From Octopus vulgaris (taxonomy: Eukaryota): a DNA stretch of 64,000 bases. The translations under genes were made by a program, and so were the position numbers. The notes beneath the pieces were generated by a model. The model had not been told where the DNA came from, searched no databases, and saw only the letters and a program-made list of their open reading frames with translations. Below are positions 1 to 45,895 of this stretch, piece by piece; within the stretch, counting starts at the first letter, position 1; every line of letters starts with the position of its first letter. The stretch spans positions 70,060,001-70,124,000 of the forward strand of contig OX597831.1 of the NCBI GenBank assembly GCA_951406725.2. The letters run 5' to 3'.

Positions 1-410
1 TTACATTAATCTTAATTTTATTTGGGCCAGAGTTCTTTCGTCACACTCCTGTGACCGCATCAGGGGTCCTTTGCTTGCTTTCTTCTTTCTTATTTGTGTG
101 TCTCTCCTTACTAACCGTCAACCATTTTGTATTTCTATTGAAATAAGAAAGAAGAAAGCAAAGGACCACTGATGCGGTCACAGGAGTGTGACGAAAGAAC
201 TCCTGGCCGAAATAAGATTAAGTTTAATGTAAAAAATAAATAACACTGAAGCAAAATAACACCAAATATATAGTGCGTGTGTTTTTATTGGTTAAACTGG
301 CAAAATGACCATTCCTAAATACAACAATATCTGTTTCAACACACGATTTCACATAAAAAATCTTGCACAACAAATATATAAACGTTTTCACCATTATTTT
401 GCTTAAAAAG
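1..410. mobile_element. Penelope-like (PLE) pLTR remnant: inverted repeat (arms ~1-94 / ~142-232) with an HHR-like motif in each arm
   Basis: Arms are near reverse complements. The + arm reads GGACCA-CTGATGCG-GTCACA ggag TGTGAC-GAAA-GAAC-TC-CTGGCC. Truncated by the window start. Confidence 0.65.
163..208 (+). ncRNA. Minimal type I hammerhead-like motif (mirror copy on - strand at 24-70)
   Basis: CTGATG core, perfect 6-bp stem II GTCACA/TGTGAC, GAAA, UC cleavage site. A9 is non-canonical. Confidence 0.55.
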
Positions 411-870
411 AAAAATAGTTTGGAATAGATTAATATCTATTCTGTTTACTTCAGGATGGAAGAATATAGTTTGTCATCAGACATATTTAAATTTCATACT
501 TTGTAAATATTAATTTACTTGTGATTTAGTATTCTTCTAATAGAGTAGCAGAGACAGGTGTTAGTCACAGGTAAACTGGTGTCAATCACACTCTGAACAA
601 AAAGTTGGGAAAACTATAAATTTTTTTTTTTTTTTAAGCGCAGAGAAAAGTATTTTTAAAAGAACAGAAAAAATTAGAGTAAATGAATATCATTTTGATA
701 GGATATTCAGACTTTTCTAAAATAGATAATGTTATTGTTGATAATTTCAAATGAAAGAGAAGCAATTTTGCTAGCATTGTGAGTGAAAGGAGATAGTGTT
801 TTGTTACACTTTGTCTGTGTTTGCTGGGTTCAAACTGAAAAGCGAAAAATACACAGAAATACAGAAACTT

Positions 871-1290
871 GTGCAGGAGTGGCTGTGTGGTAAGTAGCTT
901 GCTAACCAACCACATGGTTCCGGGTTCAGTCCCACTGCGTGGCATCTTGGGCAAGTGTCTTCTGCTATAGCCCCGGGCCCACCAATGCCTTGTGAGTGGA
1001 TTTGGTAGACGGAAACTGAAAGAAGCCTGTCATATATATGTATATATATATATGTATGTGTGTGTGTGTGTTTGTGTATCTGTGTTTGTCCCCCTAGCAT
1101 TGCTTGACAACCGATGCTGGTGTGTTTACGTCCCTGTCACTTAGCGGTTCGGCAAAAGAGACCAATAGAATAAGTACTGGGCTTACAAAGAATAAGTCCT
1201 GGGGTCGATTTGCTTGACTAAAGGCGGTGCTCCAGCATGGCCGCAGTCAAATGACTGAAACAAGTAAAAGAGTAAAGAGAGAAAGAGTAA
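871..1290 (+). mobile_element. tRNA-derived SINE, family A, full length
   Basis: Head GCAGGAGTGGCTGTGTGGTAAG..GGTTCAGTCCC, internal (TA)n(TG)n, tail GAAACAAGTAAAAGAG. Near-identical copies at 13351, 19895 and 28265. Confidence 0.9.
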
Positions 1291-1564
1291 ATCCAAAATT
1301 TGAACTTGAAGATTCTGTGTTCTTTTTAGATAAAATAACATCATTAATTTTCACATATATATAACTAGTAACAAGGGAAAAGAAAAAAATTTGAATCCGA
1401 GCAAGACAGACATACTGCCAAAATATTGTTCAGTTCAATAAGCAGAGTCAATCTTTATTCCTCACAAATCAGATTGTACTCCTCTTATTGTGTACTTACT
1501 TTCAGGGAAGAGTTATGCCAATCTTTATAAACTTATTATTATTCACTTAACTGATTTATCAATG

Positions 1565-1965
1565 TCTATGTCACATTTCAGCTCCATCTTGCAGCTCAGA
1601 AATGAAACACTTTCCTCAACAAAAGCTATTCTAAGTATCACAACTATCTGATTACTTCCTAAGAAGTTTGGGATTTGCAGCTTTTGATGCCAGAGTATTG
1701 CTCTCTTTGAGATCGATTAAGTATACCAATCACAATAGGTACCACACGCACTTTTGAGGGTCTATGAATTTTTTAAATTTCCAATCATAAGTCTTGGTAC
1801 TTCCCAACTTTTTCACCTGCTGTCCTAGCAATATTTTGGTCTGCAGGTATAGCTATGTTGATGCAGGTCCATTCTTTGGACTCCTTCAGTCAAAGAGTGA
1901 TATCTGGACGATTATGTTGCAACTTTTTGCCTGGACATATTGATATATCCCATGTGAGACCCACC
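1565..1965 (-). pseudogene. Decayed 3' end of an R4/Dong-type (restriction-like endonuclease) non-LTR retrotransposon
   Basis: Minus-strand translation contains HNRPDI..IAIPADQNI..EKVGKYQDL..VVPIVIG, with stops. Confidence 0.8.
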
Positions 1966-2002
1966 CATCATCATCATCATCATCATCATCATCATTATAA
2001 TT

Positions 2003-2222
2003 AAGGCGGTGGGCTGGCAGAATCGTTAGTATACTGGATGAAATGCTTAGAAGTATTTCATCTGACTTCACGTTCTGAGTTCAAATTCCACCAAGGTCTA
2101 TTTTGCCTGTTATCCTTTCGGAGTTGATAAATTAAGTGCCAGTTGTGTACTGGGGTCAATTTTAATCGACTATCCCCCTCCCCAAAATTTCAGGCCTTGT
2201 GCCTATAGTAGAAAGGATTATA
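2003..2222 (+). mobile_element. SINE family B, diverged
   Basis: AAGGCGGTGGGCTGGCAGAATCGTTAG..GAGTTCAAATTCC..ATCCTTTCGGAGTTGATAAATTAAG. Matches copies at 3998, 21050 and 27592. Confidence 0.85.
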
Positions 2223-2237
2223 ATTATTATTATTATT

Positions 2238-2792
2238 GAGTGGTAGAGCAGTGCATGCCATCAAAGTGACACTGGGGTAAAATATACGAAGCCCAGTATA
2301 CCCATCACGACTACCCGTCAGATAAGGGTACACCAGGCACATGCATCACAACCATATGTGCGCGACATGGTGATCTCATATCAAGATAAACAGCACATGA
2401 CCTTGCAGGTGGGGCCCAGTTAGAATTTTCTTCTGGTCGAGTAGCCCATCCCGCTCAAAAGGTCCCTGAATAAGGATTGTTTAAGGATGTTGAACAAAAC
2501 ACCCATGTTTCCAAAGGTGAATTATCCAAACCTCCAAGAACCCCTTTCAATACACGGTCTTGATGCTCCCCCACTACTTCTGCTCGTGATCAGAGATGCA
2601 CATATCGTCAGCCACTAAGGGACATGCTCAACTGGTTACGGTCAAACAACTGACAAGTAAATCTGTGGTATTGAACAGAATATTTGCTGTAGCCCATCTT
2701 TTTATACCTAGACAAAACAATGTACATGATAACACTTCCAATCAGTTAAGATCAGGAGCCATAAGAGCCACCGTCTGGTACTGCATCAGGGC

Positions 2793-2796
<4 letters not shown>
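2238..2796 (-). mobile_element. ~560-bp non-coding insertion embedded in an (ATT)n/(TAA)n tract, probably a non-autonomous retroelement
   Basis: GC-richer block with (ATT)n on both sides. The minus strand ends ..CCACTC(AAT)n. No credible ORF. Confidence 0.5.
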
Positions 2797-2847
<51 letters not shown>

Positions 2848-2898
2848 GTTGTTATTATCATTATTATTATCATTATTATTATTATTATTATTATTATT
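2794..2898. repeat. (ATT)n microsatellite
   Basis: Direct inspection. Confidence 0.95.
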
Positions 2899-3185
2899 GA
2901 ACATGTGGTAATTTAAGGCAAATCTATCCTGCATTACCTGCTACACCTCCATGTTGCTGGTGTGTGTGTAGCATTGTGTGTTCTTTTTTGTTTTTGTTGG
3001 GAGGAATGCAAACTCTTCCCAGCATTGTATTGTGTCAGCTTGTTTGTTTGGGTTGTGTTATGTTGGCAGGGAGTCGATAGAATTATTACCATGCCAGACA
3101 AAATACTCAGAGGTATTTCTTCTGGCTTATTATATTCTGAGTTCAAATGCTGCTGAGGTTGGCTGCCTTTCATCCTTTTAGGCTT

Positions 3186-3325
3186 CATCATCATCATCAT
3201 CATCGTCGTTTAGCGTCCGTTTTCCATGCTAGCATGGGTTGGACGGTTCTACTGGGGTCTGTGAAGCCAGAAGGCTTCATCAGGCCCAGTCAAATCTGGC
3301 AGTGTTTCTACGGCTGGATGCCCTT
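3186..3325 (-). mobile_element. RTE LINE extreme 3' end with (GAT)n tail, inserted into a decayed family B SINE (~3060-3420)
   Basis: Reverse complement of the 45040-45181 tail (CCCATGCTAGCATGGAAA..GGACG..GATGATG). Confidence 0.8.
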
Positions 3326-3997
3326 CGATAAATTATATACCAGTTGAGGACTGGATTTGCTGTAATTGACTTAACCCCACTCCCTTAAAAATTATTGGCT
3401 TTAATGCCAAAAATTACAACAAAATTTTTTTTCATTGTTGGAGGTAGATTGACAGAATCATTAGAATCTGGGACAAAATGCTTAGCTGTATTTAATGTTC
3501 TGACTTCAGATTTCACAAAGGTCAACTGTGCTTTTCATTCTTTTCACTTTTCACTCAATAAAAGACTAGCCAATTACTTGGGTCATAATAATCAACTTTT
3601 CTTTTCTAACAAAATTTCTGGCCTTGTGCCTTTGATAAAAATCATTATTGATAGGTTAGTGGATAGGCAAACTCTTTGAACAAATGCCTTACATTAATTC
3701 GTCCCAGTTATTTATGTTGTGAGTTCAAATTCTGCTAATGTCACTGTTGCTTTCATCTTTCCAAGAGCATAAAATTAAAGTACCAATTAATTACAGAGGT
3801 CAATTTAATTGACTTAGCCCCTCCACTCATACATTTATTAAAAAAAAACATTATTTTCTTTATTATTAGTATTTGATGAATGTCAGGATCAGTGAAACAT
3901 TGATAAAATATTCTAGCATATTTAACTATGCAATGGTGGTGGTGGTGGTTGTAATGTTGGTATTATTGTGTGATATTATTGGTGGTGGTGGTATTAT

Positions 3998-4230
3998 TCG
4001 GTGAGCGGGCAGAATCGTTAGCACGCTGGGCGAAATGCTTAGTGGTATTTCGTCTGCTGTTACATTATGGGTTCAAATTCCGCCAAGGTCGACTTTGCCT
4101 TTCATCCTTTCGGGGTCGATTAAATAAGTACCAGTTACACACTGGGGTCGATATAATTGACTTAATCCGTTTGTCTGTCCTTGTTTATCCTCTCTGTGTT
4201 TAGCCCCTTGTGGGTAGTAAAGAAATAGGT
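3998..4230 (+). mobile_element. SINE family B
   Basis: High similarity to the copy at 21050-21281. Confidence 0.9.
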
Positions 4231-5693
4231 ATTATTATTGTGTGGAGGCTTCAGTTGTTAGACATTGGTTCGGTTACTGGTAGCAGCAGCAATGGCGGTG
4301 GCGGCAGCAGTGGTGGTAGTGGTGGTGGTAGAGGCAGCACTGGTGATGTTGTAGAACTACTGATGTATCAGGTCAGGATATGAGTGCTTGAAGGAAATAA
4401 AAAAAACACACAAGAAACCTTTGATGATAATGATCAAAAGTGTTCTGGCCACACCAGCTCTAACTTTTATACAAATATCATAAGTATAATAATACAACTA
4501 TTTTAGGATGGGCTGGTAATACTTAATGGAAATTAAGCTGCCCTTCCCACCAAATCAAGCTAACAGTGGCTAAAAAATGCTTCAATTGTTGTTCCTCTTG
4601 TTGTTGTTGTCCAGACCCAGGTCAGCCCTGATCAAGCAGATCTATCATCAAAGATGTTCCACCTTTGCCATCATAATTTTTTGTTTTTTTGTGTTTCTGT
4701 AACTACACTTGTTCAGCATGTCCTTCTTATGTCAAGACAGTAGTGTGTAATTTGAGGGAATTTGGTTGATATACCTAACTGCTTGTAGGCGACTAGCTAT
4801 CATGTTGATGGTGAATATGTTGTGGTGATGTCCTCTGTAATAGTGGTTATAGTGAAAACAGTGATGATGATGATGATGACATGATGGAGGCTTGAAAACG
4901 GCGATGATAATCTGAGCAATTGAAAATGTTCAACAGAGAAAGTTGATAAATTTCTTAATTTGAAAAGGAAAAGTTAAAAACAGAATAAACAGAAAGGAAA
5001 CAAGAAGCATTTTTCTTTCTCTAAATTATTCATAGAATTAGCAAAGGAATACTTTTTCTCATTTCTCTTCAATTTTTGTAAAATTTAATCTGTTTCTTCC
5101 TTTCAGAATTTTGACATTTGTAAGTTTTGGAATTTAGTGATATTCTTTAGATAATAAGGAGTTTATAACTTTGTGATTTGATTTTATTAATTAATCCTTT
5201 GATAAAAAGAAGCAGAAACATTTTCAATGCAAAACAGCAGGAAGAAATTTGACTGGGAAAAAATCATTGATAATAATGACGACTGTTGATGGGGGGGGAG
5301 TAGCAGGAGTGGTGGTGGAAGGAGTTGCAGTGGCAGTGGCAGCAGCAGCAGCAGCAGTGGTGTGAAAATGGGAAAAATGAATGGGGATGATGATGATGAT
5401 GTGAAGATGTTCTTTGTCATGGTAATAGTTAAGGACATGGCAGTACTACTAGTGAAACTAGTGTTAGAGGTAGTATTAATGTGTAGGTGGTGGTGGTCAT
5501 TGTTGTAGTGATGAATATCTTAGGAACTCCATGACCATTGAAAAGAGATTAGAATTCATTAGATCCCTTAGTTTTTCTGTAATGTTGACACATACATCAT
5601 TCCTAATATCTCATTTCAAAATGTTTTTATTTTGTGGTGAAGGTCACTTGGTAATGTAAAGAACAGATTCTTAATGAGGCAATAAAAAGTTTC

Positions 5694-6086
5694 GGATCTT
5701 TTCGGTTTGAACGGCAGTTTTTAACATAATTTCTAGGTAACTAAAAAATTTTAAACTTTGTATACTCGTAGAATGTGTTTATAAAACATCTTTTTCTCTT
5801 GGCTTTATTGAGAAAATTCTGTATTTGTAAGATATTTGTAAGATATTTTCTTCAATTTCTGCAATTTCAACCAATCAATGACCGTCTATTGAGGTGAAAA
5901 CATTCTGTGCCGTATGAATATGTCCCTCATTTAAGAAACAGATTGGGTTTATTTATATTTGTGAAGAAAAAAACATACCCTCCTCCCCCTAACCCTAAGA
6001 CAGATAGAAATGCAATAGATCGATACTAGAGTCACAATTTCATATGACACCGCTAGAAAGAACTGCCGTACAAACCGAAAAGATCC
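5694..6086. mobile_element. MITE with 26-bp TIRs and a perfect 8-bp TSD (Merlin-like)
   Basis: TIRs GGATCTTTTCGGTTTGAACGGCAGTT / AACTGCCGTACAAACCGAAAAGATCC. TSD AAAGTTTC at 5686-5693 and 6087-6094. Confidence 0.9.
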
Positions 6087-9364: not shown

Positions 9365-9522
9365 CGCTTCTTTCAGTTTCCATCTACCAAATCCACTTAC
9401 AAGGCTTTGGTAAGCCCAAGGTTAAAGTAGAAGACAGTTACTCAAGCTGCCACACAGTGGGACTGAACCTCGAACAATGTGGTTCAGAAGCAAGCTTCTT
9501 ACTGCACAGCCACACCTGTGCC
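9365..9522 (-). mobile_element. SINE family A, 5' half
   Basis: Reverse complement of the family A head. Confidence 0.85.
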
Positions 9523-9551
<29 letters not shown>

Positions 9552-9553
<2 letters not shown>

Positions 9554-9824
9554 GTGCAGGAGTGGTTGTGTGGCAAGTAGCTTGCCTACCAACCACATGG
9601 TTCCAGGTTCAGTCCCACTGTGTGGCACTTTGGGCAAGTGTCTTCTACTATAGCTTCAGGCTGACCAAACCTTGTGAGTGGATTTGGTAGACAGAAACTG
9701 AAAGAGACCGATAGAATAAGTACTAGGCTTCGAAAGAATAAGTTCTGAGATCAATCTGCTCGACTAAAGGCGGTGCTCCAGCATGGCCACAGTCAAATGA
9801 CTGAAACAAGTAAAAGAGTAAAGA

Positions 9825-9865: not shown

Positions 9866-10259
9866 CGCTGCTAAGAAACAAACATTATTTAAAACAGTGA
9901 ATTCTGTTTTAAATGAATACTGATGAGCATGAGAAATTACATAATGTTGACATAATCAACAATATTGTGTTATGCAATAGAATTGTTGCAAAATTTAGAA
10001 CCATTTGTTTCATCTCTTGCTACAATTGCTTCAAGGCATAACAAGCATTCTCCTCTTTGTAGAACTCTAGTAAACAATTGGAATAGTGAATTACAAATCA
10101 ACAGTAAGTGGTTTTCATCACTGCTTTAAAACTGATAATGGATTGCTTCACTGTAAGCTCTGCAGGATTCTGTCAAGCCTATTGGTGATGTACTATAAGT
10201 TTGTATGCCTTGATTCTATATGAATCCTATATAACAACAATATATATATATATATATAT

Positions 10260-11252
10260 TACAAAACACACAAAAGACAAAGACAGGTGTAGTAACAACT
10301 AACAGGTGTATTAGTTTTAAACTTGGGAAGGAGAGAAAGGCTTTTATGTTTTGAGCCTATGCCCTTCAACAGGAAGGAACACAAGAAAATAAGCAGAGAG
10401 AGAATAGAAAAAGCTTTAGCAGCTAGTGGTCAATCGTGGTGGTTAGCTGGACAGAGGTGGTCCTCAACACAACACACAACGCACCACATATCACCACACC
10501 ACAATACAACACAACACACATCACTACACCACATCACACTACCCAGCACACACTAGAAATGACCCCTTCCCCTTCCCCACACCCCACCCCTCACATTCCC
10601 ACACCCACCCTCCCATCCCCCTACACACACTTCCACCCCCACACCCCATCCTTGAAACCTCCACACCCCAACACTGCCACACCACACCACACCACACAAC
10701 ACTACACTACATCATGCCACACCACATGCCACCACACTACCCATCCACATCACAACACAACACACAACCCACATCACCACACGACCACACCACAAATCAC
10801 CACACCACCACAACACACCACAACATACCACACATCACCACCCCACACCGCCACACCACATCGCACCAGCCCGCACACATTAGCACTGACCACTTCCCAG
10901 CACCCACACTATCATCCACACATCTACACATGCACATATCCACACGTGAAAGTCACCAGCCCCTATCCACACACACACACACACTTTTACATACACATGC
11001 ACGCGCACCTTTGTTTTGGGATTACCACTACTTTATTATCTCACCTTCTTCCTAGCTCCTATCTGACCTCTGTCCAGCCAGCCACCATGATTGACCACTA
11101 AAGCTTTTTTATTATCTCCCACTTTATTTTCTCACGCTCCTTTCTGATGAAGAGCATAGGCTTGAAACGAAAAAATCTTTCTCAACTTCCTGAGCATTAA
11201 ACTAATACACCTGTCTTTGTCTTTTGTTTTTTTTGTAAATTCCAAACATATA
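10260..11252. mobile_element. PLE-like element: ~200-bp diverged inverted arms, each with an HHR-like motif, around a CAC/ACA low-complexity spacer
   Basis: 10260-10460 is roughly the reverse complement of 11062-11252. The + arm has CTTT-CTGATGAA-GAGC atag GCTT-GAAA-CG. The - arm motif is at 10341-10377. Related copy at 46053. Confidence 0.7.
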
Positions 11253-11757: not shown

Positions 11758-11854
11758 TGGCCTGATGATTGGGCTGGCATCTTGAGAGGGGTTCCAGGGA
11801 AACACAGAGCGGTTTAGGAACCCAAGGATCTACCTCATGAAACATGTGTAGCCA
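11758..11854 (+). ncRNA. Type I hammerhead motif with a long stem II
   Basis: TGGC-CTGATGA-[~70 nt containing GGGTTCC/GGAACCC]-GAAA-CATGTG-TA-GCCA. Canonical core and a 4-bp stem I. Confidence 0.65.
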
Positions 11855-12143
11855 AGGAATAAAACAGTAGGTATAAAAATAAAAAATAAAAAATAAAAAA
11901 TAAAAATAAAAATTCTTTTTATTTGGTGAGAAGTAGGGGTATACTATCTATAAATTAAAATATACATATATATATTAATTGTTATCGCCATATTAATATG
12001 GCATTCTTATAGATATAAGAATAATCGCTGCCATGGTCAGCTCCATGAGGCCACCGCCATCAAGATAGCTATTGATACACAATCTGTATCCATTATAACC
12101 TTCGAACAAGGGAGGTCAGCCGCTTCACACTGCCAGTCCGACA

Positions 12144-12185
12144 GCTACAGACGCGTTTCGGGGTATTGCCCCTTGTCAATGTAGC
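12144..12185 (-). ncRNA. Minimal hammerhead, U3-A8 core variant
   Basis: GCTACA-TTGACAA-GGGG caata CCCC-GAAA-CGCG-TC-TGTAGC: 6-bp stem I, 4-bp stem II, palindromic stem III, GUC site. Confidence 0.85.
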
Positions 12186-12506
12186 GCAGTCAGACCCGCA
12201 GGTGTCGCCACTGACGTCTCTGTTCGAAGGCTTATATTTACCTAGTTTCAGTGGAATACATCCACTTGTTTTCAATAATAGAAATATTAAAATTACTAAG
12301 TCTCTATAAAAGAGATTATGGCAGCGTTTACTGGAAATTAATTGTTATCGCCATATTAATATGGCATTCTTATAGATATAAGAATAATCGCTGCCATGGT
12401 CAGCTCCATCAGGCCAACGCCATCAAGATAGCTATTGATACACGATCTGTATCCATTATAACCTTCGAACAAGGGAGGTCAGCCGCTTCATACTGCCAGT
12501 CCGACA

Positions 12507-12548
12507 GCTTCAGACGCGTTTCGGGGTATTACCCCTTGTCAATGTAGC
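12507..12548 (-). ncRNA. Second tandem copy of the U3-A8 hammerhead
   Basis: GCTACA-TTGACAA-GGGG taata CCCC-GAAA-CGCG-TC-TGAAGC (one stem I mismatch). Confidence 0.8.
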
Positions 12549-12746
12549 GCAGTCAGACCCGCAGGTTATAATGGATACAGATCGTGTATCAATAGCTATC
12601 TTGATCGCGGTGGCCTGATGGAGCTGACCATGGCAGCGATTATTCTTATATCTATAAGAATGCCATATTAATATGGCGATAACAATTAATTTCCAGTAAA
12701 CGCTGCCATAATCTCTTTTATAGAGACTTAGTAATTTTAATATTTC

Positions 12747-12789
<43 letters not shown>

Positions 12790-12790
<1 letters not shown>

Positions 12791-13514
12791 TGTGTAAATT
12801 ATAGGGGTAAAACATTAGTATAATTTATTACCAGTGGTTTGCATGTGTAATAAAAGTCATTAAACAACATATTTTCATATATAAGAGTGTATAAAGATTT
12901 ATACACAGAGAGAAGACCCTTGATAGGACATCTTACATGCTAAAAAGGGCAGTTAATCCCAAACCATGAAGAAAATAATCCTAAAGGCACACTGATTAGA
13001 ATGAAAAAAAATATTATTAGTTAATCCACACCACTATTAATGAGCAAATAAATTAATTTTTCCATCTGTGGTTTATCAGTGGGCTCATTAAGACAATGCA
13101 TAATTATATAGCTTAATATGTATTGAAAAAACACATGTGAACTGCATTTTTATACATTATGGATTTAAATCAAGCACACAAGTGCTGTCACATGGCCAGC
13201 AGCAAATAATAAGTTTAAATTGCATACTATATGGCCTCAGAATTAGGAAAATTTAATTGTGTAAATTATAGGGGTAAAAAATTTAGAATAATTTATTACC
13301 AGTGGTTTGCATGGATAATAAAAGTCATACGACAACACATTTTCATATATAGGCACAGGAGTGGCTGTGTGGTAAGTAGCTTGCTAACCAACCACATGAT
13401 TCCGGGTTCAGTCCTACTGCATGGCATCTTGGGCAAGTGTCTTCTGCTATAGCCCCGGGCCAACCAATGCTTTGTGAGTGGATTTGGTAGACGGAAACTG
13501 AAAAAAGCCTGTCG

Positions 13515-13565
<51 letters not shown>

Positions 13566-13912
13566 TTGTGTGTCTGTCCCCCTAGCATTGCTTGACAACC
13601 GATGCTGGTGTGTTTACGTCCCCGTCACTTAGCGGTTTGGCAAAAGAGACCGATAAGTACTGGGCTTACAAAGAATAAGTCCCGGGGTCAATTTGCCCAA
13701 CTAAAGGCGGTGCTCCAGCATGGCCGCAGGCAAATGACTGAAACAAGTAAAAGAGTAAAAGAGTAAAAGAGTAAGTGTGTATGAAGATTTATACACAGAG
13801 AGAAGACCCTTGACAGTACTTCTTGCATATGTGGTTTGGGTCTAACTGCCCTTTTTAGCATGTAAGAAGTCCTGTCAAAGGTCTTCTCTCTGTGTATAAA
13901 TCTTTCATATAT
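12790..13912. repeat. Diverged tandem duplication (12790-12965 / 13257-13830, second copy split by a SINE) ending in an inverted arm; PLE-like layout
   Basis: TGTGTAAATTATAGGGGTAAAA..TTACCAGTGGTTTGCATG occurs twice. 13832-13912 is the reverse complement of ~12885-12965. Confidence 0.7.
13351..13774 (+). mobile_element. SINE family A, full length
   Basis: Near-identical to 871-1290. Confidence 0.9.
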
Positions 13913-22510: not shown

Positions 22511-23118
22511 TTTTGTCTTGATGTGGTCGAAGTAGACACATACATTTTGCCATGATGATTTTGTCTATTCATTGATATTTGTATTTGTTTTTCAAAATAG
22601 ACGATGATCTTCTTTAAAATTTTCAGCAAAGTTTTGCCAGAATTAAATTTAAAATTGTTCACAGCTTGGGTAATCTTTCCTTTCAGGTTGTTTTTAATTC
22701 TACAATTGTATTTTAACGTACATATTGAGCATTTAAAAATTTTTTTCTGTGAATTACTTTGAAACATTACTTGGCTTATTTCTTTATCTCTGTATAACAT
22801 TACAGTGCCATGTTTACTTAAACATGTTAAAATGTATGTATCATTTATATAGAAATGCTGCAATATACATAATGTTTTAAAAAAAACTAATGTAGAAATA
22901 TTTATTTCTAATCTTACCACATTCTGTAGCACATCTTCTTCAATATTTAGCATGCTGCCTTCTTATAAGTAGTAAATACACACGTCCAATAATCGAACTG
23001 ACCACAACAGTTGTTATATGTATGTGTGTATATATTTGTCTATCTATCTATCTATCTGTCTGTCTATATATATATATATACATATATATATATGTGTATA
23101 TATATATATATATATATA

Positions 23119-23297
23119 CTTTATTTAAAGCAGCAGAAAATTCAACAAAACCTGTTACTCTGAGTTTCCCGTTGCCGTTCATCAGACAGGTTTTGTTGAA
23201 TTTTCTGCTGCTTTAAATAAAGCATATTACTCTACCACTGGTATTTAAGTACTCTTTTTCCCACCTTGTTTCACATTTATGTGTTTACTCCGGTACA
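23119..23297. mobile_element. Short PLE-like insertion in (TA)n: 37-bp perfect hairpin enclosing a hammerhead core
   Basis: 23119-23155 is the reverse complement of 23186-23222. Same family as 30953-31347. Confidence 0.8.
23151..23190 (-). ncRNA. Hammerhead with canonical core
   Basis: CCTGT-CTGATGA-ACG gcaa CGG-GAAA-CTC a GAG-TA-ACAGG. One stem II mismatch; the sister copy at 31062-31099 has CGT. Confidence 0.8.
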
Positions 23298-23308
23298 TAT
23301 ATATATAT

Positions 23309-24265
23309 ATATGAATAAAAAATGGAGTTAACGCAGGTTTAAACAAGTATTTTTACTTTCTACATATGTTTCGAAAATTCCACTGATACTATTCAAAAGA
23401 ATAAATGGTATAAACAATGCAATCTTCTCTTCGGGAAAGTGAAAAAACGAAACTCGTCAATACGACATTTTAGCAAAAAATGATGGATTTGTATAGCGAT
23501 AGACAGAACGCTATTAATATTGTTTAAAAAAACGTTATATGATATAACGTCATAAGTAGCTAACAGAAAGAGTAGGGATATTAATAGTGAATGTTAAATA
23601 TAAAGGAAATTAAAGTTTAAATTATATATAATGATAGAGACTACTTATATGCACTAAATGTATGTTTCTGCCAATGATTACATCTGTATGCTCGTTCTAT
23701 AACCGTGTTTACTAGAGTATTTTTAGAACGAGCATACAGATGTAAGCATTGGCAGAAACATACATTTAGTGCATATAAGTAGTCTCTATCATTATATATA
23801 ATTTAAACTTTAATTTCCTTTATATTTAACATTCACTATTAATATCCCTACTCTTTCTGTTAGCTACTTATGACGTTATATCATATAACGTTTTTTTAAA
23901 CAATATTAATAGCGTTCTGTCTATCGCTATACAAATCCATCATTTTTTGCTAAAATGTCGTATTGACGAGTTTCGTTTTTTCACTTTCCCGAAGAGAAGA
24001 TTGCATTGTTTATACCATTTATTCTTTTGAATAGTATCAGTGGAATTTTCGAAACATATGCAGAAAGTAAAAATACTTGTTTAAACCTGCGTTAACTCCA
24101 TTTTTTATTCATATTATTCAAAATATTCAACGTAAACACGAAGTTTCAACCTTTATAAACAAGGAGTTACAACATCTTTACTTGTGAGATTTTTGCTGCC
24201 CTGGTAACTATTTATTTATTTTTCCGTGTTAATTGTTAACAAGGTAAAAATACACTCATCTATTT
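23309..24265. mobile_element. ~800-bp near-perfect palindrome (arms ~23309-23699 / 23724-24114) plus unique tail, between TA tracts; PLE-like
   Basis: ~390-bp arms, 24-nt loop, only two mismatches seen by eye. Confidence 0.9.
23355..23440 (-). ncRNA. Hammerhead with extended stem II (mirror copy 23983-24068 on + has CA in place of UA)
   Basis: ACTTTC-CCGAAGA-GAAGATTGCATTG..CAGTGGAATTTTC-GAAA-CATATG-TA-GAAAGT. Confidence 0.75.
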
Positions 24266-24329
24266 ATATATATCTATATATATATCTATATATATATCTC
24301 TCTCTCTCTCACTATATATATATATATAT

Positions 24330-24766
24330 ATATATATGAAAAAACAAGTCAAAAATAGAAAATGCTAAGATAATTTTATAGTGAATCTTTCAGTACCGGT
24401 TTCGGTCATTTTGAGACCTTTTCAACTGTAACGATTAAATAATTAAATTTAGAAAAATTAGAAGAAAAGTTTTTTAAAAGAATATTTCTATAGTAGTGTT
24501 CAGATATAAGTGGCATTCTGCCTTTCTCTGACTCCCTTGTTTGCACTGGTGCAAACAAGGGAGTCAGAGAAAGGCAGAATGCCACTTATATCTGAACACT
24601 ACTATAGAAATATTCTTTTAAAAAAACTTTTCTTCTAATTTTTCTAAATTTAATTATTTAATCGTTACAGTTGAAAAGGTCTCAAAATGACCGAAACCGG
24701 TACTGAAAGATTCACTATAAAATTATCTTAGCATTTTCTATTTTTGACATGTTTTTTCATATATAT
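24330..24766. mobile_element. ~435-bp near-perfect palindrome with a 2-nt centre, in a TA tract; PLE-like
   Basis: Centre TTGCAC-TG-GTGCAA at 24541-24554. Arms differ by about one substitution and an A-run length change. Confidence 0.9.
24668..24705 (+). ncRNA. Minimal hammerhead, U3-A8 core variant (mirror copy 24391-24428 on -)
   Basis: CAG-TTGAAAA-GGTC tcaaaat GACC-GAAA-CCGG-TA-CTG. Confidence 0.75.
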
Positions 24767-24792
24767 CAACTCGTGTGTTCCTTTCCACCCTT

Positions 24793-24832
<40 letters not shown>

Positions 24833-24837
<5 letters not shown>

Positions 24838-25037
24838 TAATCCAAACATGAAAACACAAAGAGAAAACACAACAACGCGAGGACGTGGGACAAATATAGT
24901 ATTATTGGACGCTCAGGAAGGAAGGGAAGAAGGAGGGTTTTACGTTTCGAGTGGAGCCCTTTGTCAGAAACATAGGAAAAGGAAAGATCCAGAGAAGGGA
25001 AGACGGAAGAAAAAATCGCCAACGGTACACACACGGT

Positions 25038-25042
<5 letters not shown>
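24833..25042 (-). mobile_element. HHR-bearing PLE-like short element in a microsatellite (motif at 24937-24971)
   Basis: GTTT-CTGACAAA-GGGC tcc ACTC-GAAA-CG-TA-AAAC. Second copy at 45187-45382. Confidence 0.7.
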
Positions 25043-25083
<41 letters not shown>

Positions 25084-25140
25084 CTTATATATATATAGCA
25101 GCGTATGTCCACTTTGGTCTCATATATATATTTATGTATG

Positions 25141-25199
<59 letters not shown>

Positions 25200-30601: not shown

Positions 30602-30952
30602 TAGTCAACCTCAGAACTTCTGTTTTTACAACAACTAGTTTTCAGCCTCTTTAGCCAAAATGCTAAGTTATGGTGGTGTATACAAACCAGTACCAGTTGT
30701 CAAGTACCATGGTAAGGTACAAACTCAGACACACAGACATTTATGTATGTAGACAGTTTCTCTATATCAAGTTCACACACATCACATTGGTCAACCCAGG
30801 GGCTATAGTAGAAGACACTTCTCTAACATGCAATGCAATCAGACTGAACACAAACCACCACATGGCTGAAAAGTAAGCTTCTTAGCCACATGGTTATAAG
30901 AATGACCACATGGTTATAAGGAAAATGCCAAAATTTTGCTATATATATATAT

Positions 30953-31347
30953 ACCAGAGTAAGCACATAAATGTGAAACAAGGTGGAAAAAAGCGTACTC
31001 AAATACCAGAGGTAGAGTAGTATGCTTTATTTAAAAGCAGCAGAAATATAAATAACAAAAGCTGTTACTCAGAGTTTCACGTTCCCATTCATCGGACAGG
31101 TTTTGTTAAAAAGAAAAACAACCTGTCCCCGTCACTTAGCGGTTCGGCAAGAGAGACCGATAGAATAAGTACTGGGCTTACAAAGAATAAGTCCCGGGGT
31201 CGATTTGCTTGACTACAGGCGGTGCTCCAGCATGGCCACAGTCAAATGACTGAAACAAGTAAACGAGAGTAAGCAAGTGTCCAACGAACGGGAATGTGAA
31301 ACTCTGAGTAACAGCTTTTGTTATATTTCTGCAGCTTTTAAATAAAG
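30953..31347. mobile_element. PLE-like inverted pair with HHR motifs (31062-31099 -, 31278-31314 +), interrupted by a SINE A 3' fragment (~31124-31272)
   Basis: CTGT-CCGATGA-ATG ggaa CGT-GAAA-CTCTGAG-TA-ACAG. Homologous to 23119-23297. Confidence 0.8.
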
Positions 31348-31598
31348 TATGGGTGTGTGCGTATAATTATATACATATGTATATGTTTATTTTTACATTT
31401 TCTTTTCAAGTAAGCATAGGTTAGGCAGAGATATAATTAAGGCATTGCTTTATAGTCAGATGCATTTTCTGACATTAATTTATATAGTTTTTTTTCATGT
31501 AAGAGATCTCTTATTACTTATGTGTTTGAAGGTTTAAAGCCAGTACATGATTCATAAACATATATGTTCTTGTTTATGTGCTTGTCCATACTTGTCAA

Positions 31599-32251: not shown

Positions 32252-32295
<44 letters not shown>

Positions 32296-32315
32296 TATAT
32301 ATATATATACGCATA

Positions 32316-32384
<69 letters not shown>

Positions 32385-32387
<3 letters not shown>

Positions 32388-32570
32388 ACAGTAGCAACGA
32401 ATATGGAGATTAGTACATCTGTATATTTTTTTAGTATTTCTACAGTCAATTACAGCATATTTGATTTAAATTTGTCAGACGCAAATTTAAACCAAATATA
32501 CGGTAATTGGCTGCAGAAATAAAAGAAAATATGTAGACGTACTAATCTCCATATTCGTTGTTACTGTATC
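32385..32570. repeat. Imperfect ~185-bp palindrome abutting a long (TA)n
   Basis: GATACAGTAGCAACGAATATGGAGATTAGTAC..GTACTAATCTCCATATTCGTTGTTACTGTATC, with inner arms also complementary. Confidence 0.85.
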
Positions 32571-32782
32571 GAATATTCACTCAGTTAAATATTCAAAATC
32601 CAGTGAAATAAACTCAAGATTTACCCATGGGATAAATATGCTGGGATTGCTTACCTCAAGTAATTCTAGGTGTTCATTACAACTTGATCCAGTTACCCTT
32701 ATGCTGGAGTATAACTGAGTGCTTGAACAGAACTCACCTGGATATTCTATTCTTAGCTATTCACTATATGTATATATATATA

Positions 32783-33067
32783 GAGAGTGGTTGTATACTG
32801 TCAACCTAATGTGACAGTCCTGTAAGGGAATTACACCACCGCTGTTTAGCCCTAAATATCTCAATGGTGGGTAAGACCCAGAAACATGCATGTCTCTAGA
32901 TGTAGGACTAGCTGTTGGGGGTGTTTGTCTCCCCTTGGTAAATATATAAGGACACAGGAAATGTGTCAAGGCCGACAGGAAGCGTCGATGCTTCCTAGGG
33001 CTAAACAGCGGTGGTGTAATTCCCTTACAGGACTGTCATGTTAAGTTGACAGTACACAACCACTCTA
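32783..33067. mobile_element. Inverted repeat (32783-32854 / 32995-33067) whose spacer holds the 3' half of a hammerhead
   Basis: TGGGT aag ACCCA-GAAA-CATGCATG-TC at 32868-32894. The 5' core is degenerate. Confidence 0.65.
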
Positions 33068-33159
33068 TTGCTCTACCACCGTACATATCTCTATGAGATA
33101 TTTAGAAATTTAATATTTCTGATATATATATATATATATACATGCATACATACAGGTCA

Positions 33160-38044: not shown

Positions 38045-38990
38045 GTATATACTGTATATTCATATATATATTACTTTTACGAGAATAATATTGATAGAGA
38101 CTTCAAAGATTCAGCCAACTAAGCCATTATTGGATTGTAATGAATTAAGTTAATCTTGCTTTTGTGTAGTTTCTACTGAGATAAATTTTTTTTCTGGGAT
38201 GTGTGTGGTTCAGTTGAAAAGTAATTAGGTTGAAGGGTGAGTTGTGATGAAGAATATTTTATTGATTAAATTCTGGGTTATTTTTGTTCAGAATTCATTC
38301 ATGCATGTATATCTTTGTAAACAATTTGTTTATTTAGGAGTGTCAGCTTCAGATCATAGGGTTGTTTTTTAGTGATTCACAAAAAGAAAGTAGGTTGACA
38401 AAGTTTTGGACCAGCAGATGTGTAATTAGTTTTAGTTGCTTTTGGTTTTATTGGACTTAATCCAGCATTTGAGAACATCACTTGGGATCTTCAGTTGAAA
38501 ATAACATTTTAGCATCTATTTCTAAAATATTCACTACATTAGCTCGTGTGCATTCCTTACTTCAAACATCCAACTCTGTTTAAAAGAAAACTATCATGTA
38601 CAAGAATAAATTTTAAATAAAGATGTATTATTACCGTTATTAATGGTATTAATAAGGTAATGATAAAGTGGCCAGCAAATTCACACCATTACAGGCATAA
38701 TATAAGGCAAATTTAGATTCAGTAGGGTATATAATACCACTTGCTAATGTAGTGAATATTTTAGAAATAGGTATTAAACTGAAGATCCCAGAGTATGTTG
38801 GTCATACAGAGGGTGAAATCAATTAATATAGAAAAATATATTATTTAGTATTCAATGAAAAGGTAAGCCTACTTCTAATATGTTCATTGCATTGCTTGTG
38901 TGTATCTTTATTGTGAGTTTATGGTGGTTTTGGAGCCTTGGCTCTGAATCTTGCAAGTGGTTTTATATACCCTACCGGGTATTATCTCTC

Positions 38991-39265: not shown

Positions 39266-39328
<63 letters not shown>

Positions 39329-41055: not shown

Positions 41056-41289
41056 CTATTTCTTTATTACCCACAAGGGGCCAAACACAGAGGGGACAAA
41101 CAAGGACAGACATAGGTATTAAGTCGATTACATCGACCCCAGTGCGTAACTGGTACTTAATTTATCGACCCCGGATGGATGAAAGGCAAAGTCGACCTCG
41201 GTGGAATTCGAACTCACAACGTAACGCAGACAAAATACCGCTAAGCATTTCGCCCGGTGTGCTAACATTTCTGCCAGCTCGCCGCCTTT
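41056..41289 (-). mobile_element. SINE family B with 14-bp TSD
   Basis: TSD CTATAAAAATACCT at 41044-41057 and 41290-41303. Confidence 0.93.
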
Positions 41290-42060
41290 CTATAAAAATA
41301 CCTTATTACTTCAGTTGAAACACATGTATTTGAGGACAATGTTTTTTTTTTAAGCCTAATCTTTTCATCCAAAGCATCCTTTTAAGCATTAATAAAACAC
41401 AATCAATAAACATGATATCATATACTAAAATGCAATAAAAAATCCACACTTCATTTTGAAGATATTTCTTCTCAGATATAAAAGCTAACAGACATTGAAA
41501 TAAAATATTGATGGTATTATTACATATTAGGTTACATAAATAATCTGTAAAACAAGGGATCAATTAAATTTGTAAAAGAAACAAGTAAATTAAACATTTT
41601 GAAATATAATAAGTTAACAAATGAAAATTAGTAGAGATTCTTACCTGAGCTTTGCAGACCATTCCCTTAAAATGAAAGATAGCAAAGTGATAGGAGAGGA
41701 GAAAATTATTGGCATCAGTATTAACAGTAGGATTCTTGAGAGAGAAATACATGGATAAGCTCTAGGAATATTCTCAAGCTACTTGTAAAGCAACTTAGCT
41801 TTTTTGCAAATAAATATCTCATTCACTGGTTTCCAATTTGACTGTTTCTCTTTGAGCCAGAATAATATACTATTTTCCACCTCATCAAAATGTGAGCAAC
41901 TTCTACAATAGAAGACAGTAAGCCAAGATGGACAACCCTTTTTCAAGAAGCAGGCAGCATCAGGCATCGCATGTCACATAACCAGCCCATTTGAAATGTA
42001 CTTTTGAATCATCAGGTGACACACCATAGTTGAGGAGACTTATTGGATGTATCATCAACG

Positions 42061-42362
42061 TCATCATCATCATCATTTAACGTCCACTTTCCATGCTAGC
42101 ATGGGTTGGACGATTTGACTGAGGTCTGGTGATCCAGACTCCAATCTGATCTGGCAGAGTTTCTACAGCTGGATGCCCTTCCTAATGCCAACCACTCCGA
42201 GAGTGTAGTGGGTGCTTTTACGTGCCACTGGCACAAGGGCCAGTTTGGTGGTACTGGCAACGGCCATGCCCAAATGGTGCTTTTTACATGCTACCTGCAC
42301 TGGAGGCAGTCCAGCGGCACTGGTGACGACCTCGCTCGAATGTTTCACATGCCACCAGCACA
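42061..42362 (-). mobile_element. RTE LINE 3'UTR and tail
   Basis: Reverse complement of the RTE 3' end with (GAT)n. Confidence 0.85.
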
Positions 42363-42412
<50 letters not shown>

Positions 42413-42669
42413 CTGTCTATATATATATGTGCATATGAGCACGAATACAAAAATTCTTTTTTTGTCGAAGTATTATCTTCCTAGTTACAACAGCAGTGGC
42501 TCATTACATCATTTTCTCAAAACTAGAATTTTCATGTTCATATCTGAATTTTTCGCGTTTCAACTTTTCTCTGTTTTTTACTCATTCCCAAAGTTGACGG
42601 ACATTTAGCAATATGTAAAACCAAATCTCTTGTGAGACTGCTTATCTTTAAATTTTTCTACCTATTTTT

Positions 42670-42711
42670 GTACATGAAGAGACCTAGAATGGGTCGAAAC
42701 ATGTGTCATAC
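42670..42711 (+). ncRNA. Hammerhead-like motif, slightly decayed
   Basis: GTAC-ATGAAGA-GACCT agaat GGGTC-GAAA-CATGTG-TC-ATAC. C3 is replaced by A. Confidence 0.65.
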
Positions 42712-42863
42712 TAAATAAAATCTTTTTTTTCCATCTATTTTATTAATACTGTTACCTCAACCATCACTATGAAGTTCCTACAATCTACGGATAATAACAG
42801 GTAATCGTAACTGTGGTGGTGCTTTACTCATCATCCACTTATACACTTTGTATAATTTCTCTA

Positions 42864-42898
<35 letters not shown>

Positions 42899-43291
42899 AC
42901 AATTTAAAGGAAAATTCCAGGGGAATAATTACAAGGTAGCTAAATGTTGCTTAAGTGTGTCTGGATTTAAATCCAGGATAGTAAGTCGTGTTTTCTAGAA
43001 AATAGGAAAATTGAACAAGGAGACAAACTCTCGGGATGTTAAACCATTTATATCTTGAATTCTTCTACATATGTGTCGACGAAAGCACTTCAAAATGCCC
43101 GACAGGATAAAGTATGGTCAGCAATGCATCAATCTCATATCCTGTATGGATATTTTATACTGTCTCTGAAGTTCTGTCAGCGTTTCTGCATTTCAAAATA
43201 AATTATTATCTTATTTGTATCTCAAAATTCACATTTCAGCACTTCTAAGGCCAGCATTGGTTTGTTTACTTTTATCGTAATATATATATAC

Positions 43292-43322
<31 letters not shown>

Positions 43323-43331
43323 CATATATAT

Positions 43332-44620
43332 ATATTCCTGGTAAGGCAGCTGCAGGAGAAATACCTAGCCAAGGATAAGCCCCTGTACCTGGCTTTCGTT
43401 GACATGGAGAAAGCCTTTGATAGGGTCCCCCGATCCCTCATCTGATGGTCAATGAGGAAACTAGGGATAGATGAATGGCTGGTGAGGGCTGTGCAAGCCA
43501 TGTACAGAGATGCCGTAAGTAAGGTTAGAGTTGGCAACATGTACACAGAAGAATTCAAAGTAGAGGTTGGGGTCCACCAGGGTTCAGTACTCAGCCCCCT
43601 CCTATTTATCATAGTCCTCCAGGCAATAACGGAGGAATTCAAGACAGGTTGCCCCTGGGAGCTCCTCTATGCTGACGACCTCGCTCTAATCGCTGAGTCA
43701 CTATCAGAACTGGAGGAGAAGTTCCAGGTGTGGAAGGAGGGTTTAGAATCGAGGGGCCTTAGAGTCAACCTAGCTAAAACCAAAGTACTAATAAGTAGAA
43801 AGGTAGAAAACCCACAAATATCCTCAGGAAGATGGCCCTGCTCGATCTGTAGAAAAGGTGTAGGTAGAAACTCTATAAGATGTACCCAGTGTAAGCTATG
43901 GACACATAAGAGGTGCAGCAATGTCAAAGGTAGGCTAACTGGGAAGATAGTTTTTGTATGTGGCAGGTGCTCTGGAGCATTGACCTCCGAAAATCTGCAG
44001 AAAACAACTTCTGTCACTTTCCGGGGGAAAAACTAGAAGTAGTTGATAGCTTCCGCTATCTAGGTGACCAAGTCAGTAGTGGGGGTGGGTGCGCTGAAAG
44101 TGTAACTGCTAGAATAAGAATAGCCTGGGCAAAGTTTAGGGAGCTCTTACCTCTGCTGGTGACTAAAGGCCTCTCGCTCAGAGTAAAAGGCAGACTGTAT
44201 GATGCATGTGTACGAACAGCTATGCTACATGGCAGTGAAACATGGGCCGTGACTGCTGAGGACATGCGTAAGCTCGTGAGGAACGAAGCCAGTATGCTCC
44301 ATTGGATGTGTAATGTCAGTGTACTTACTCGACAGAGCGTTAGTACCTTGAGAGAAATGTTGTACCTAAGAAGCATCAGTTGTTGTGTGCAAGAGAGACG
44401 ATTGCGCTGGTATGGTCATGTGGCGAGAATGGATGAAGATAGGTGTGTGAGAAAGTGCCAATCCCTAGCAGTTGAGGGAACCCGTGGAAGAGGTAGACCC
44501 AGGAAAACCTGGGACGAGGTGGTGAAGCACGACCTTCGGACGTTAGGTCTCACCATGGAAATGACTAGAGACCGAGACCTATGGAAGTATGCTGTGCGTG
44601 AGAAGACCCGGCAAGACTAG
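43332..44620 (+). pseudogene. RTE reverse transcriptase ORF (disrupted)
   Basis: ORFs 43452-44036 and 43958-44620 join across a frameshift. Confidence 0.93.
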
Positions 44621-45181
44621 TGAAGCCATAATCCGTGGCCCCTACCTGGGACGTAGTCAGTCCACCTGTGCATACCTTCCTTCTTGTGACACTTGTGAAG
44701 ACCTGTTGAGGCAAGTGAGAATCGAATCGTATCGAATCAAATCGAACCAAATCAAAATAGATGAATATCAATGGAATTTGTATCCTTGTGGTACCAGTGC
44801 CGGTGGCACATAAGAAAACCATCCGAACGTGACCGTAGCCAGTACCGCAATGACTGGCCTCCGTGCTGAGGGCACGTAACAAACACCATCCGAGCGTGGC
44901 CGTCCGCCAGCCTCGTCTGGCACCTGTGTCGGTGACACATAAGAAAACACCATCCGAGCGTGGCCGTCTGCCAGCCTCGTCTGGCACCTGTGTCGGTGGC
45001 ACATAAAATCACCCACTACACTCTCGGAGTGGTTGGCGTTAGGAAGGGCATCCAGCTGTAGAAACACTGCCACATCTGACTGGCCTGGTGCAGCCTTCGG
45101 GCTTCCCAGACCCCAGTTGAACCGTCCAACCCATGCTAGCATGGAAAGCGGACGTTAAACGATGATGATGATGATGATGAT
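43332..45181 (+). mobile_element. Young 5'-truncated RTE-clade LINE: RT domain, Cys-rich insert, C-terminus, repeated 3'UTR and (GAT)n tail
   Basis: FVDMEKAFDRVPR, GVHQGSVLSPLLF, YADD, YLG, RLRWYGHV, RGRPRKTW. One stop (~43443) and one frameshift (~44025). Confidence 0.96.
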
Positions 45182-45186
45182 ATAGT

Positions 45187-45382
45187 TAGTTAATCCAAAC
45201 AAGAAAGCACAAAAAAACACAACGCAAGGACATGGAACAAATATAGTATTATTGGACGCTCAGGAAAGAAGGAGGGTTTAATGTTTCGAGCGGAGCGCTT
45301 CGTCAGAAACATAGGAGAAGGAAAGATCCAGAGAAGGGAAGACAGAGGAAAAAAATCGCCAACGGTACACATACGGTCACAT
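45187..45382 (-). mobile_element. HHR-bearing short element, copy of 24833-25042 (motif at 45276-45310)
   Basis: GTTT-CTGACGAA-GCGC tcc GCTC-GAAA-CA-TT-AAAC. Confidence 0.7.
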
Positions 45383-45692
45383 ATATACCATCATTTATCC
45401 TGTTGGACATTTTTGAGTGCATCTTTCAAAACATATGAAACAGAATTCATGATATAAATGATTTAACGACACCCTGAGTGTTCATCTCCTTGTTCAATTT
45501 TCCTATATAAGTGAATATATATATATATATATGGATATTTCATCTGGTATGGATATTTTATACTGTCTCTGCTGTTCTATCAGCGTTTGTGCATTTGAAA
45601 ATAAATTATTATCATATTTGTATCTCACAATACACATTTCAGTAATTCTAAAGCAAACATTGGTTTGTTTACATTCATCATAATATATATAT

Positions 45693-45895
45693 ATATCAAA
45701 GTATCAATAGAGACAAAAATCCCCATAAATTCAACCATGTCATAGAATATTATATTTAATACTTACTAGAACATAGTATACAACCTCATGAAACACATGT
45801 AGTCGACAACTTTGAACATGAATAGTATTAAATATAATATTCTATGACATGGTGGAATTTATGGGGGTTTTTGTCTTTAATTATACTTTGATATA
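45693..45895. repeat. Imperfect palindrome in a TA tract; the spacer holds CCTCAT-GAAA-CACATG-TA, like the 3' half of the 11758 hammerhead
   Basis: Arms ~45693-45762 and ~45823-45895. Confidence 0.7.

Follow-up and report, generated by a model that had tools for sequence, protein, structure and literature searches.

Staggered arms in a head-to-head palindrome at a TA tract of Octopus vulgaris are compatible with two-ended priming of probable Penelope-like element derivatives

Introduction

Penelope-like elements (PLEs) are described in inverted arrangements, of which head-to-head is the most frequent (PMC3846280). The same account reports palindromes and overlaps at PLE junctions and a tail on one of the inverted pseudo-long terminal repeats (pLTRs), and proposes self-priming on an antisense template. 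A later study describes partial tandems with an adjacent inverted 5′-truncated copy, a 30-40 bp tail at one end, and (TA)n targets, and calls the origin of the inverted structures unsettled (PMC8557442). Here, we analyze a 64,000-nt stretch of the Octopus vulgaris genome (contig OX597831.1, positions 70,060,001 to 70,124,000 of assembly GCA_951406725.2; hereafter the window) that contains 11 TA-associated palindromes (P1-P11), candidate PLE derivatives in which hammerhead ribozyme (HHR)-like motifs give the orientation of the arms.

The window copies resemble the inverted-pLTR insertions of endonuclease-bearing (EN+) PLEs, such as the Adineta vaga Pen families (PMC3846280; PMC8557442), in their polarity and in the combination of a partial tandem with an inverted 5′-truncated copy. 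They also share the overlap or palindrome at the junction, the tail at one end, and the AT-rich or (TA)n targets. Unlike the Adineta vaga families as described there, the window copies have no coding region, both of their arms are short, and the verified tail is 73 nt rather than 30-40. Neither of these two accounts invokes two-ended priming: the earlier (2013) explains the structures by antisense self-priming, the later (2021) by endonuclease resolution of the tail. We did not find two-ended priming stated for PLE inverted repeats, a weak negative as most subscription papers and the older PLE reviews lay outside the search.

A PLE protein, predicted to be a dimer, cuts and extends both strands at AT-rich DNA and starts at two internal RNA sites, between which the tail lies (PMC11167929). 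This element, Poseidon of Anolis carolinensis, is like the window copies in its AT-rich target and in the cutting and extension of both strands that we propose for them, and its two start sites match the two endpoints of one window family (family B, below). Unlike the window copies, Poseidon is an autonomous element with a protein tested in vitro, and its start sites are closer together.

In Schistosoma mansoni, minimal HHRs are described in pairs, with the partners on opposite strands and 100-700 bp from each other (PMC4209133). Those in the window are alike in spacing, opposite strands, and a bulged base before stem II, as well as in the minimal type I form, palindromic stem III, and U3-A8 core variant; the Schistosoma passage gives no polarity, arm anatomy, or mechanism. 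Non-LTR retrozymes are non-coding tandem repeats that contain a type I HHR and for which an origin from PLE pLTRs has been proposed; by definition, two or more units follow one another, and the type I HHR of each is complete and active (bioRxiv 10.64898/2026.07.22.740005). The window units of 363, ~467, and 481 nt are likewise non-coding, tandem, and associated with an HHR-like motif. Unlike retrozymes, the window arrays have fewer than two units and carry an inverted arm, and their cleavage and circular RNA are only predicted.

Results

Self-BLAST of the microsatellite-masked window gave 25 inverted matches at most 2.5 kb apart, from which 19 regions were aligned. After eight of these were set aside, 11 TA-associated palindromes remained in the 64 kb (Table 1). 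They include all eight places named in a first-pass annotation of the window, each of which self-BLAST and alignment confirmed as an inverted repeat, and three others (23114-23295, 12790-13909, and 32379-32576).

Fold-back of any single strand predicts nested arms, with the center and the tail on the same arm because everything in the second arm is also in the first, whereas two primings permit staggered arms. Family B supplies a test, since it exists at two loci, P4 and P7. P4 is staggered: the left arm, which ends short, owns the minus-strand core between the stems, the right arm owns the plus-strand 73-nt tail, and the two arms are joined through 12 nt of HHR stem I. In P7, the left arm carries the tail and the right arm ends short; both endpoints coincide with those of P4, and the center is a different one. 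The short ends of P4 and P7 are identical to the base, both loci being without the next element base, and the long end is also the same; the 73-nt tail is common to P4 right and P7 left (23223-23295 matches 30952-31024 on the other strand). Nine unique bases at the P7 center are not assignable to an arm, and a SINE (short interspersed nuclear element) fragment lies there as well (31125-31272).

Within a locus, the family B arms match at 37/37 (P4) and 65/70 (P7) positions, compared to 84-89% identity between loci, so each pair has one source. Fold-back by itself would not give the P4 arrangement, since a folded strand cannot copy a tail that it lacks. Together, the sequences suggest that P4 is one clear staggered locus and P7 a partly informative one, and they fit two primings at two start sites. 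Among 20,000 random junctions, an overlap of at least 4 nt, as in P3, occurred by chance in 1.9% and one of 12 nt, as in P4, in 0.0% (at four decimals). We dropped central microhomology as a discriminator of mechanisms, because both cDNAs have the same sequence and fold-back and the annealing of two cDNAs leave the same overlap.

To orient the arms, we scored minimal type I hammerhead motifs without regard to strand, with the reversed window as control (best control score, 21.1). Motifs above control were found in P1, P3, P4, P6, P7, and P11 and in solo elements at 42674 and 49594. The scores are 22.5 on the left (-) and 21.9 on the right (+) in P1, 22.8 on both sides in P6 (left -, right +), and 22.7 on the left (-) and 20.6 on the right (+) in P7. 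P3, P4, and P11 have one above-control motif each, and a second copy shows the owning arm; in P3, the minus-strand motif (23.6) lies in the spacer, and the tandem copy assigns this spacer to the left arm. P3 and P6 have cores of the U3-A8 variant described for PLE hammerheads (PMC4209133). All six of these firm orientations are head-to-head (two-sided p 0.031).

P2 (right +, 18.5 with an intact core; left -, 15.2) and P5 (best score 18.8, - on the left and + on the right) score at chance level, and their direction agrees with the other six. P2 was oriented from family A copies, and P5 partly from a 12-nt HHR 3′-half motif that is also present in the strong solo HHR at 42674. This motif, which was defined after these sites had been seen, has six matches against 0.16 expected; a match at 41317 without stem II was treated as chance. 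When the two weak calls are included, 8/8 palindromes are head-to-head (p 0.008, with P4 and P7 being one family). Three of the 11 are not orientable (P8, P9, and P10), and none of the others is tail-to-tail. As a control, inverted neighbors of the common SINE within ~1.5 kb occur in both orientations: one pair is head-to-head (9366/9557) and two are tail-to-tail (26966/28265 and 33451/34341).

The first-pass annotation had placed an HHR in both arms of five palindromes, on the minus strand at left and the plus strand at right, a count that by itself gives 5/5 (p 0.06). Three of these are firm (1-232, 24330-24766, and 30953-31350) and two are weakly scored (10259-11252 and 23309-24114). It had called three more places compatible with this polarity. 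That at 12275-12752 is so through its minus-strand 23.6 motif, whereas the spacers of 32784-33066 and 45693-45895 hold a partial motif at best and are not assignable to an arm. Two head-to-head cases, 23114-23295 and 12790-13909, had been missed. Its description of unequal arms applies to arms taken with their tails and centers, whereas the paired stretches alone are nearly equal.

In the window, no Rfam family reached its gathering score, and at E up to 10 no hammerhead family was among the best 150 of 219 matches, which were hairpin or microsatellite look-alikes only; the HHR calls are therefore motif-based. Minimal HHRs are expected to need a dimer. When monomers were folded and compared to shuffles, 3/10 folds stood out (P4 on both strands, z -5.4; P11, z -4.7), all with long stems. 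The other folds were no better than or near the shuffles, and folding was not used as support.

Among the 10 palindromes with both ends in the window, nine have an arm or array end at most 5 nt from a (TA)3+ tract, and the tenth reaches TA via its tail. The same criterion is met by 7.4% of random positions, a comparison in which the palindrome end coordinates were chosen by the analyst. The 12 solo candidates have a TA tract at most 275 nt downstream in eight cases and at most 275 nt upstream in eight; as TA lies on both sides equally often, solos give no independent check of orientation. Extensions at P1, P5, P6, P8, and P9 are only candidate tails, with no second copy in the window. Chains of insertions follow TA tracts at 23065-25190 (P4, P5, P6, and a family A-like solo) and 32259-33140 (P8 and P9), and single microsatellites appear to have been targeted repeatedly.

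At 9369-9705, two copies of the common SINE, 82% alike, stand head-to-head around a TA tract and form an imperfect 340-nt hairpin. At 45186-45506, two HHR-like families, family A-like (-) and family C (+), are head-to-head with few AT bases between them (45380/45386), which may represent either a single event with two RNAs or two successive insertions. Family C recurs inverted at 42895-43290 and 45387-45693 (79%), with a neighboring 147-nt segment as a direct repeat (89%) and a 1.8-kb element bearing a reverse transcriptase between the two; either an old palindrome or a long duplication of the target could account for this arrangement.

Arm identity ranges from 99% down to ~82% across the palindromes, with differences of 2 in 218 (P6), 3 in 394 (P5), 3 in 193 (P3), and 14 in 96 (P8). 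Center lengths are 2, 7, 18, 30, 31, 45, 60, and 92 nt, and no 10-mer is common to nine palindrome centers. SINE pieces interrupt P7 and P11. The arms make up 4.7% of the window, and those with 99% identity 2.5%.

The pieces are very probably truncated or non-autonomous PLE derivatives, as judged from their sequence: we find an HHR motif, a partial tandem, a head-to-head inverted 5′-truncated copy, a one-sided tail, and TA targets. The HHR-like motif appears to be of the minimal type I, with the features described in PMC4209133, and its cleavage is predicted only. Partial tandems have a 363-nt unit at 11974-12566 and a unit of ~467 nt at 12790-13828, and a 19-nt direct repeat is found 481 nt apart at 49385/49866. 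Set against the retrozyme definition of at least two tandem units, P3 left comprises 1.63 units in which one motif occurs twice, and HHR activity is only predicted.

Two other assignments are not supported. Naiads, a PLE clade with an N-terminal endonuclease and (TA)n targets, are described as having no canonical HHR (PMC8557442); HHR-like motifs are present in 8/11 palindromes (P8-P10 are not judgeable), which argues against a Naiad. A miniature inverted-repeat transposable element (MITE), or another DNA transposon with terminal inverted repeats (TIRs), was rejected on the two family B loci with different centers and one-sided tails and on the family A solos, which have no inverted partner in the window. 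A scan of metagenome and viral contigs for the family A HHR motif gave 0 loci, as did a scan of viral, metagenome, and prokaryote genome contigs for the SINE motif.

Table 1. Coordinates of the 11 palindromes and their arms in the window
Feature	Position	Strand or orientation	HHR-like motif	Remarks
P1 palindrome	1-232; arms 1-95, 141-232	head-to-head	30-63 (-), 169-202 (+)	left end cut by window edge; 9 differences in 96 columns
P2, family A pair	10259-11252	left (-), right (+)		607-nt C/A-rich spacer; arms 126/154 aligned bases identical plus 34 gap columns; right arm vs solo copy 121/154
P3 left, partial tandem	11974-12566	-	12150-12179, 12239-12275, 12513-12542; U3-A8 type core	363-nt unit x 1.63
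P3 right, inverted arm	12560-12752	+		3 differences in 193; abuts (TA)n 12750-12787; overlaps left arm by 4 nt at 12563-12566; runs ~60 nt past left array's own 3′ end (unit coordinates)
P4 left arm, family B	23114-23197	-	core 23156-23185, owned by this arm	short outer end at (TA)n
P4 right arm, family B	23186-23295	+		begins in 12-nt HHR stem I overlap 23186-23197; owns 73-nt tail 23223-23295
P5 palindrome	23309-24114	left -, right +	weak call	394-nt arms, 3 differences, 18-nt center; youngest long one; ~150-nt extension on right before next TA tract
P6 palindrome	24330-24766		24394-24425 (-), 24671-24702 (+)	218-nt arms, 2 differences, 2-nt center; ~25-nt extension before (TA)n 24792
P7, family B	30953-31350	left (-), right (+)	left 31066-31095, right 31281-31310	tail on left, short end on right
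P8, older TA-anchored palindrome	32379-32576	not orientable	no call	14 differences in 96 columns
P9	32784-33066	not orientable	partial motif in spacer, score below control level	71-nt arms, 141-nt spacer, 56-nt right extension to TA
P10	45693-45895	not orientable	HHR 3′-half motif on + (45790-45801)	TA both sides; 60-nt spacer
P11 left, partial tandem	12790-13828	-	13049-13079	unit ~467 nt before SINE; 12791-12883 repeated at 13258-13351; SINE interrupts at 13352-13771
P11 right, short inverted arm	13829-13909	+		inward reach 28 nt beyond adjacent left unit; ends ~100 nt short of left outer end; junction ~3 shared plus 4 extra bases (by eye)

Discussion

The head-to-head layout is ordinary for PLEs and already published; what is new here is the staggered-arm test and one locus, P4, that passes it. 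We give about an even chance to the reading that the palindromes are short inverted pairs of 5′-truncated, non-autonomous PLE insertions that arose by two-ended priming at a cut TA tract. A PLE protein encoded elsewhere would mobilize the elements in trans, and both strands of the cut tract would prime reverse transcription. Each target end would start at one of two sites, leaving the tail on one arm; the truncated cDNAs, having the same sequence, would pair in the middle via sequence that is naturally self-complementary, such as HHR stem I, and host repair would fill in. From known PLE biology, the default for a TA target is a cut by the element-encoded endonuclease.

The first-pass annotation had proposed two-ended priming on the grounds of polarity, with fold-back of the cDNA as an alternative. 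The mechanism is plausible, but polarity alone does not point to it, because cDNA fold-back and antisense self-priming predict the same polarity; what speaks for it are the staggered arms of P4 and the endpoints that P4 has in common with P7. The PLE-type origin, outward-facing 3′ ends, and TA targets also proposed there are supported.

The strongest alternative, which we consider unlikely, is one-ended target priming followed by fold-back: the truncated cDNA would pair with itself at a short inverted repeat and copy outward as the sense strand, and AT-rich microhomology would link the product to the other end of the target. On this view, P4 began as a nested product, and either its loop flipped later or its left tail was lost. 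Fold-back predicts the head-to-head polarity together with near-identical arms (~99% in P3, P5, and P6). It has to invoke a second event for the staggered P4, it sits poorly with the recurrence in P4 and P7 of a short end that is identical to the base and without the next element base, and in P11 it needs a ~390-nt loop back to the outer unit.

Several observations weigh against two-ended priming, some of them by fitting fold-back. Only P4 is unambiguously staggered, and since its 30-nt core lies between 42-bp inverted arms, a later inversion of the loop of a nested product would look identical. The recurring short end lies at an ATAT stretch, which could guide the end of a fold-back copy too. 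Most centers are short, as local hairpins would make them (2 nt in P6), and the owner of the center is not assignable for P1, P5, P7, P8, P9, and P10. In P3 and P11, the short arm is contained wholly within the tandem left array, which fits fold-back onto a tandem unit. The P3 right arm has 2 differences in 190 from the inner unit (junction mismatch excluded), compared to 6 in 230 between units, a small numerical difference; bases diagnostic of arm versus unit in P3 and P11 did not decide the mechanism. A target-site duplication cannot be read in TA tracts. Poseidon is a lizard element, and inverted insertions are absent from the main text and three text supplements of its description (PMC11167929), whose supplementary figures may bear on the point. 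Finally, no PLE protein gene was recognized by eye among the 91 frames of at least 90 aa in the window, only five of which were scanned against Pfam. Those five, which do not include the arms, gave RVT_1 with a PHD-like domain, two DDE domains, and helix-turn-helix (HTH) domains, and no GIY-YIG. A missing PLE protein is expected if the copies are truncated or non-autonomous.

Two separate insertions in one TA hot spot, or read-through copying of an entire source palindrome, each followed by arm-to-arm gene conversion, are improbable for the set as a whole. TA tracts are hit repeatedly, as in the chain at 23065-25060 (P4, P5, P6, and the family A-like solo), and head-to-head neighbors around TA or AT bases also arise from a SINE pair (9369-9705) and from two different families (45380/45386). 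Against this, the families of P3, P5, and P6 are each seen at one window locus, with 99% arms and no TA between them, and the centers of P4 and P7 differ, so neither was copied whole from the other. For P2 alone we rate this explanation higher, as its two arms resemble one another little more than they do a solo copy; P2 may be either an old single event or two separate insertions.

Self-priming on antisense RNA, in which a hairpin intermediate forms before integration and is then inserted, was published for just this head-to-head polarity and these junction palindromes (PMC3846280), and the P6 and P4 junctions are indeed self-complementary. We find it quite improbable here: it predicts nested arms, unlike P4, it leaves the fixed TA endpoints of solo and palindromic copies unexplained, and later in vitro work shows cut DNA priming at internal RNA sites (PMC11167929). 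An assembly or library artifact (fold-back chimeras) is very improbable, because arm differences are graded (2 in 218 to 14 in 96), SINE pieces lie inside P7 and P11, arms terminate where the element does rather than in host DNA, and nine centers share no 10-mer, even though assemblies are known to falter at palindromes and TA tracts (PMC8557442), the first base of the window is also that of P1, and the evidence is assembled sequence.

Returning to two-ended priming, we hypothesize, with confidence somewhat short of even, that the short staggered palindromes are fossils of a dimeric PLE protein that primed both ends of a double-strand cut, each on its own RNA and from a different start site. 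If so, HHR stem I would be a built-in annealing site for the cDNAs, head-to-head joins of two families (45186-45506 and perhaps 42895-43275) would be two-RNA products, and the PLE inverted repeat and its one-sided tail would be explained together, replacing the antisense self-priming model.

Twin priming of LINE-1 (L1) is a related process, in which each target strand serves as a primer and microhomology joins the cDNAs; the second primer copies another internal part of the RNA, which results in an inversion. By comparison, both arms in the window carry the same 3′ region and so need two RNA copies or two tandem units.

A nested-versus-staggered score separates two-ended priming from all single-strand fold-back models by genome sequence alone. 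With 11 cases in 64 kb, this genome seems rich in usable loci, so the origin of inverted copies can be tested directly. Transcripts of the young palindromes, if there are any, would fold into long perfect hairpins. Octopus bimaculoides is described as having an exceptionally high share of such hairpin-forming loci (PMC5625713), and palindromes of this kind, if transcribed, could supply part of the octopus's unusually high load of near-perfect double-stranded RNA.

Additional observations

Of the eight inverted regions set aside, three are SINE pairs and one is a microsatellite. The other four are short inverted repeats in which no HHR was convincing: a hairpin of 19 bp (14090), arms of 37 bp at 5686/6058 and of 42 bp at 54959/55405, and an old candidate palindrome at 38474-38799 (HHR score 18.0). 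The last belongs to an old inverted repeat at 38474-38975 that has a perfect HHR core word facing outward in each arm and a second, 23-nt inverted repeat (38722/38953); it is a possible twelfth head-to-head case. The identical 42-bp inverted repeats at 54959-55446, 404 nt apart, are not TA-anchored and by eye are an apparent DNA-transposon remnant.

The interior of P2 (10459-11005) is ~550 nt of C/A-rich low-complexity sequence, and the family A-like solos at 24836 and 45186 stop on their 5′ side at the same point, beside CA or TA repeats. Two distinct HHR-like motifs, at 12150-12179 and 12239-12275, lie on one strand of the 363-nt P3 unit, and the right arm stops just before the core of the second. 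A perfect HHR core and a 3′ half lie ~70 nt apart at 11761-11850, a variant with a long stem II outside the range of the scorer. The solo HHR element at 49385-49884 scores 24.0, and its 19-nt direct repeat, 481 nt apart, is as from a tandem or circular RNA.

Fragments of other mobile elements in the window include an RVT_1 retroelement with a PHD-like finger (43446-44617), a DDE_Tnp_1_7 transposase (61497-61931), and a Tc1-like transposase with HTH and DDE_3 domains (63110-63986).

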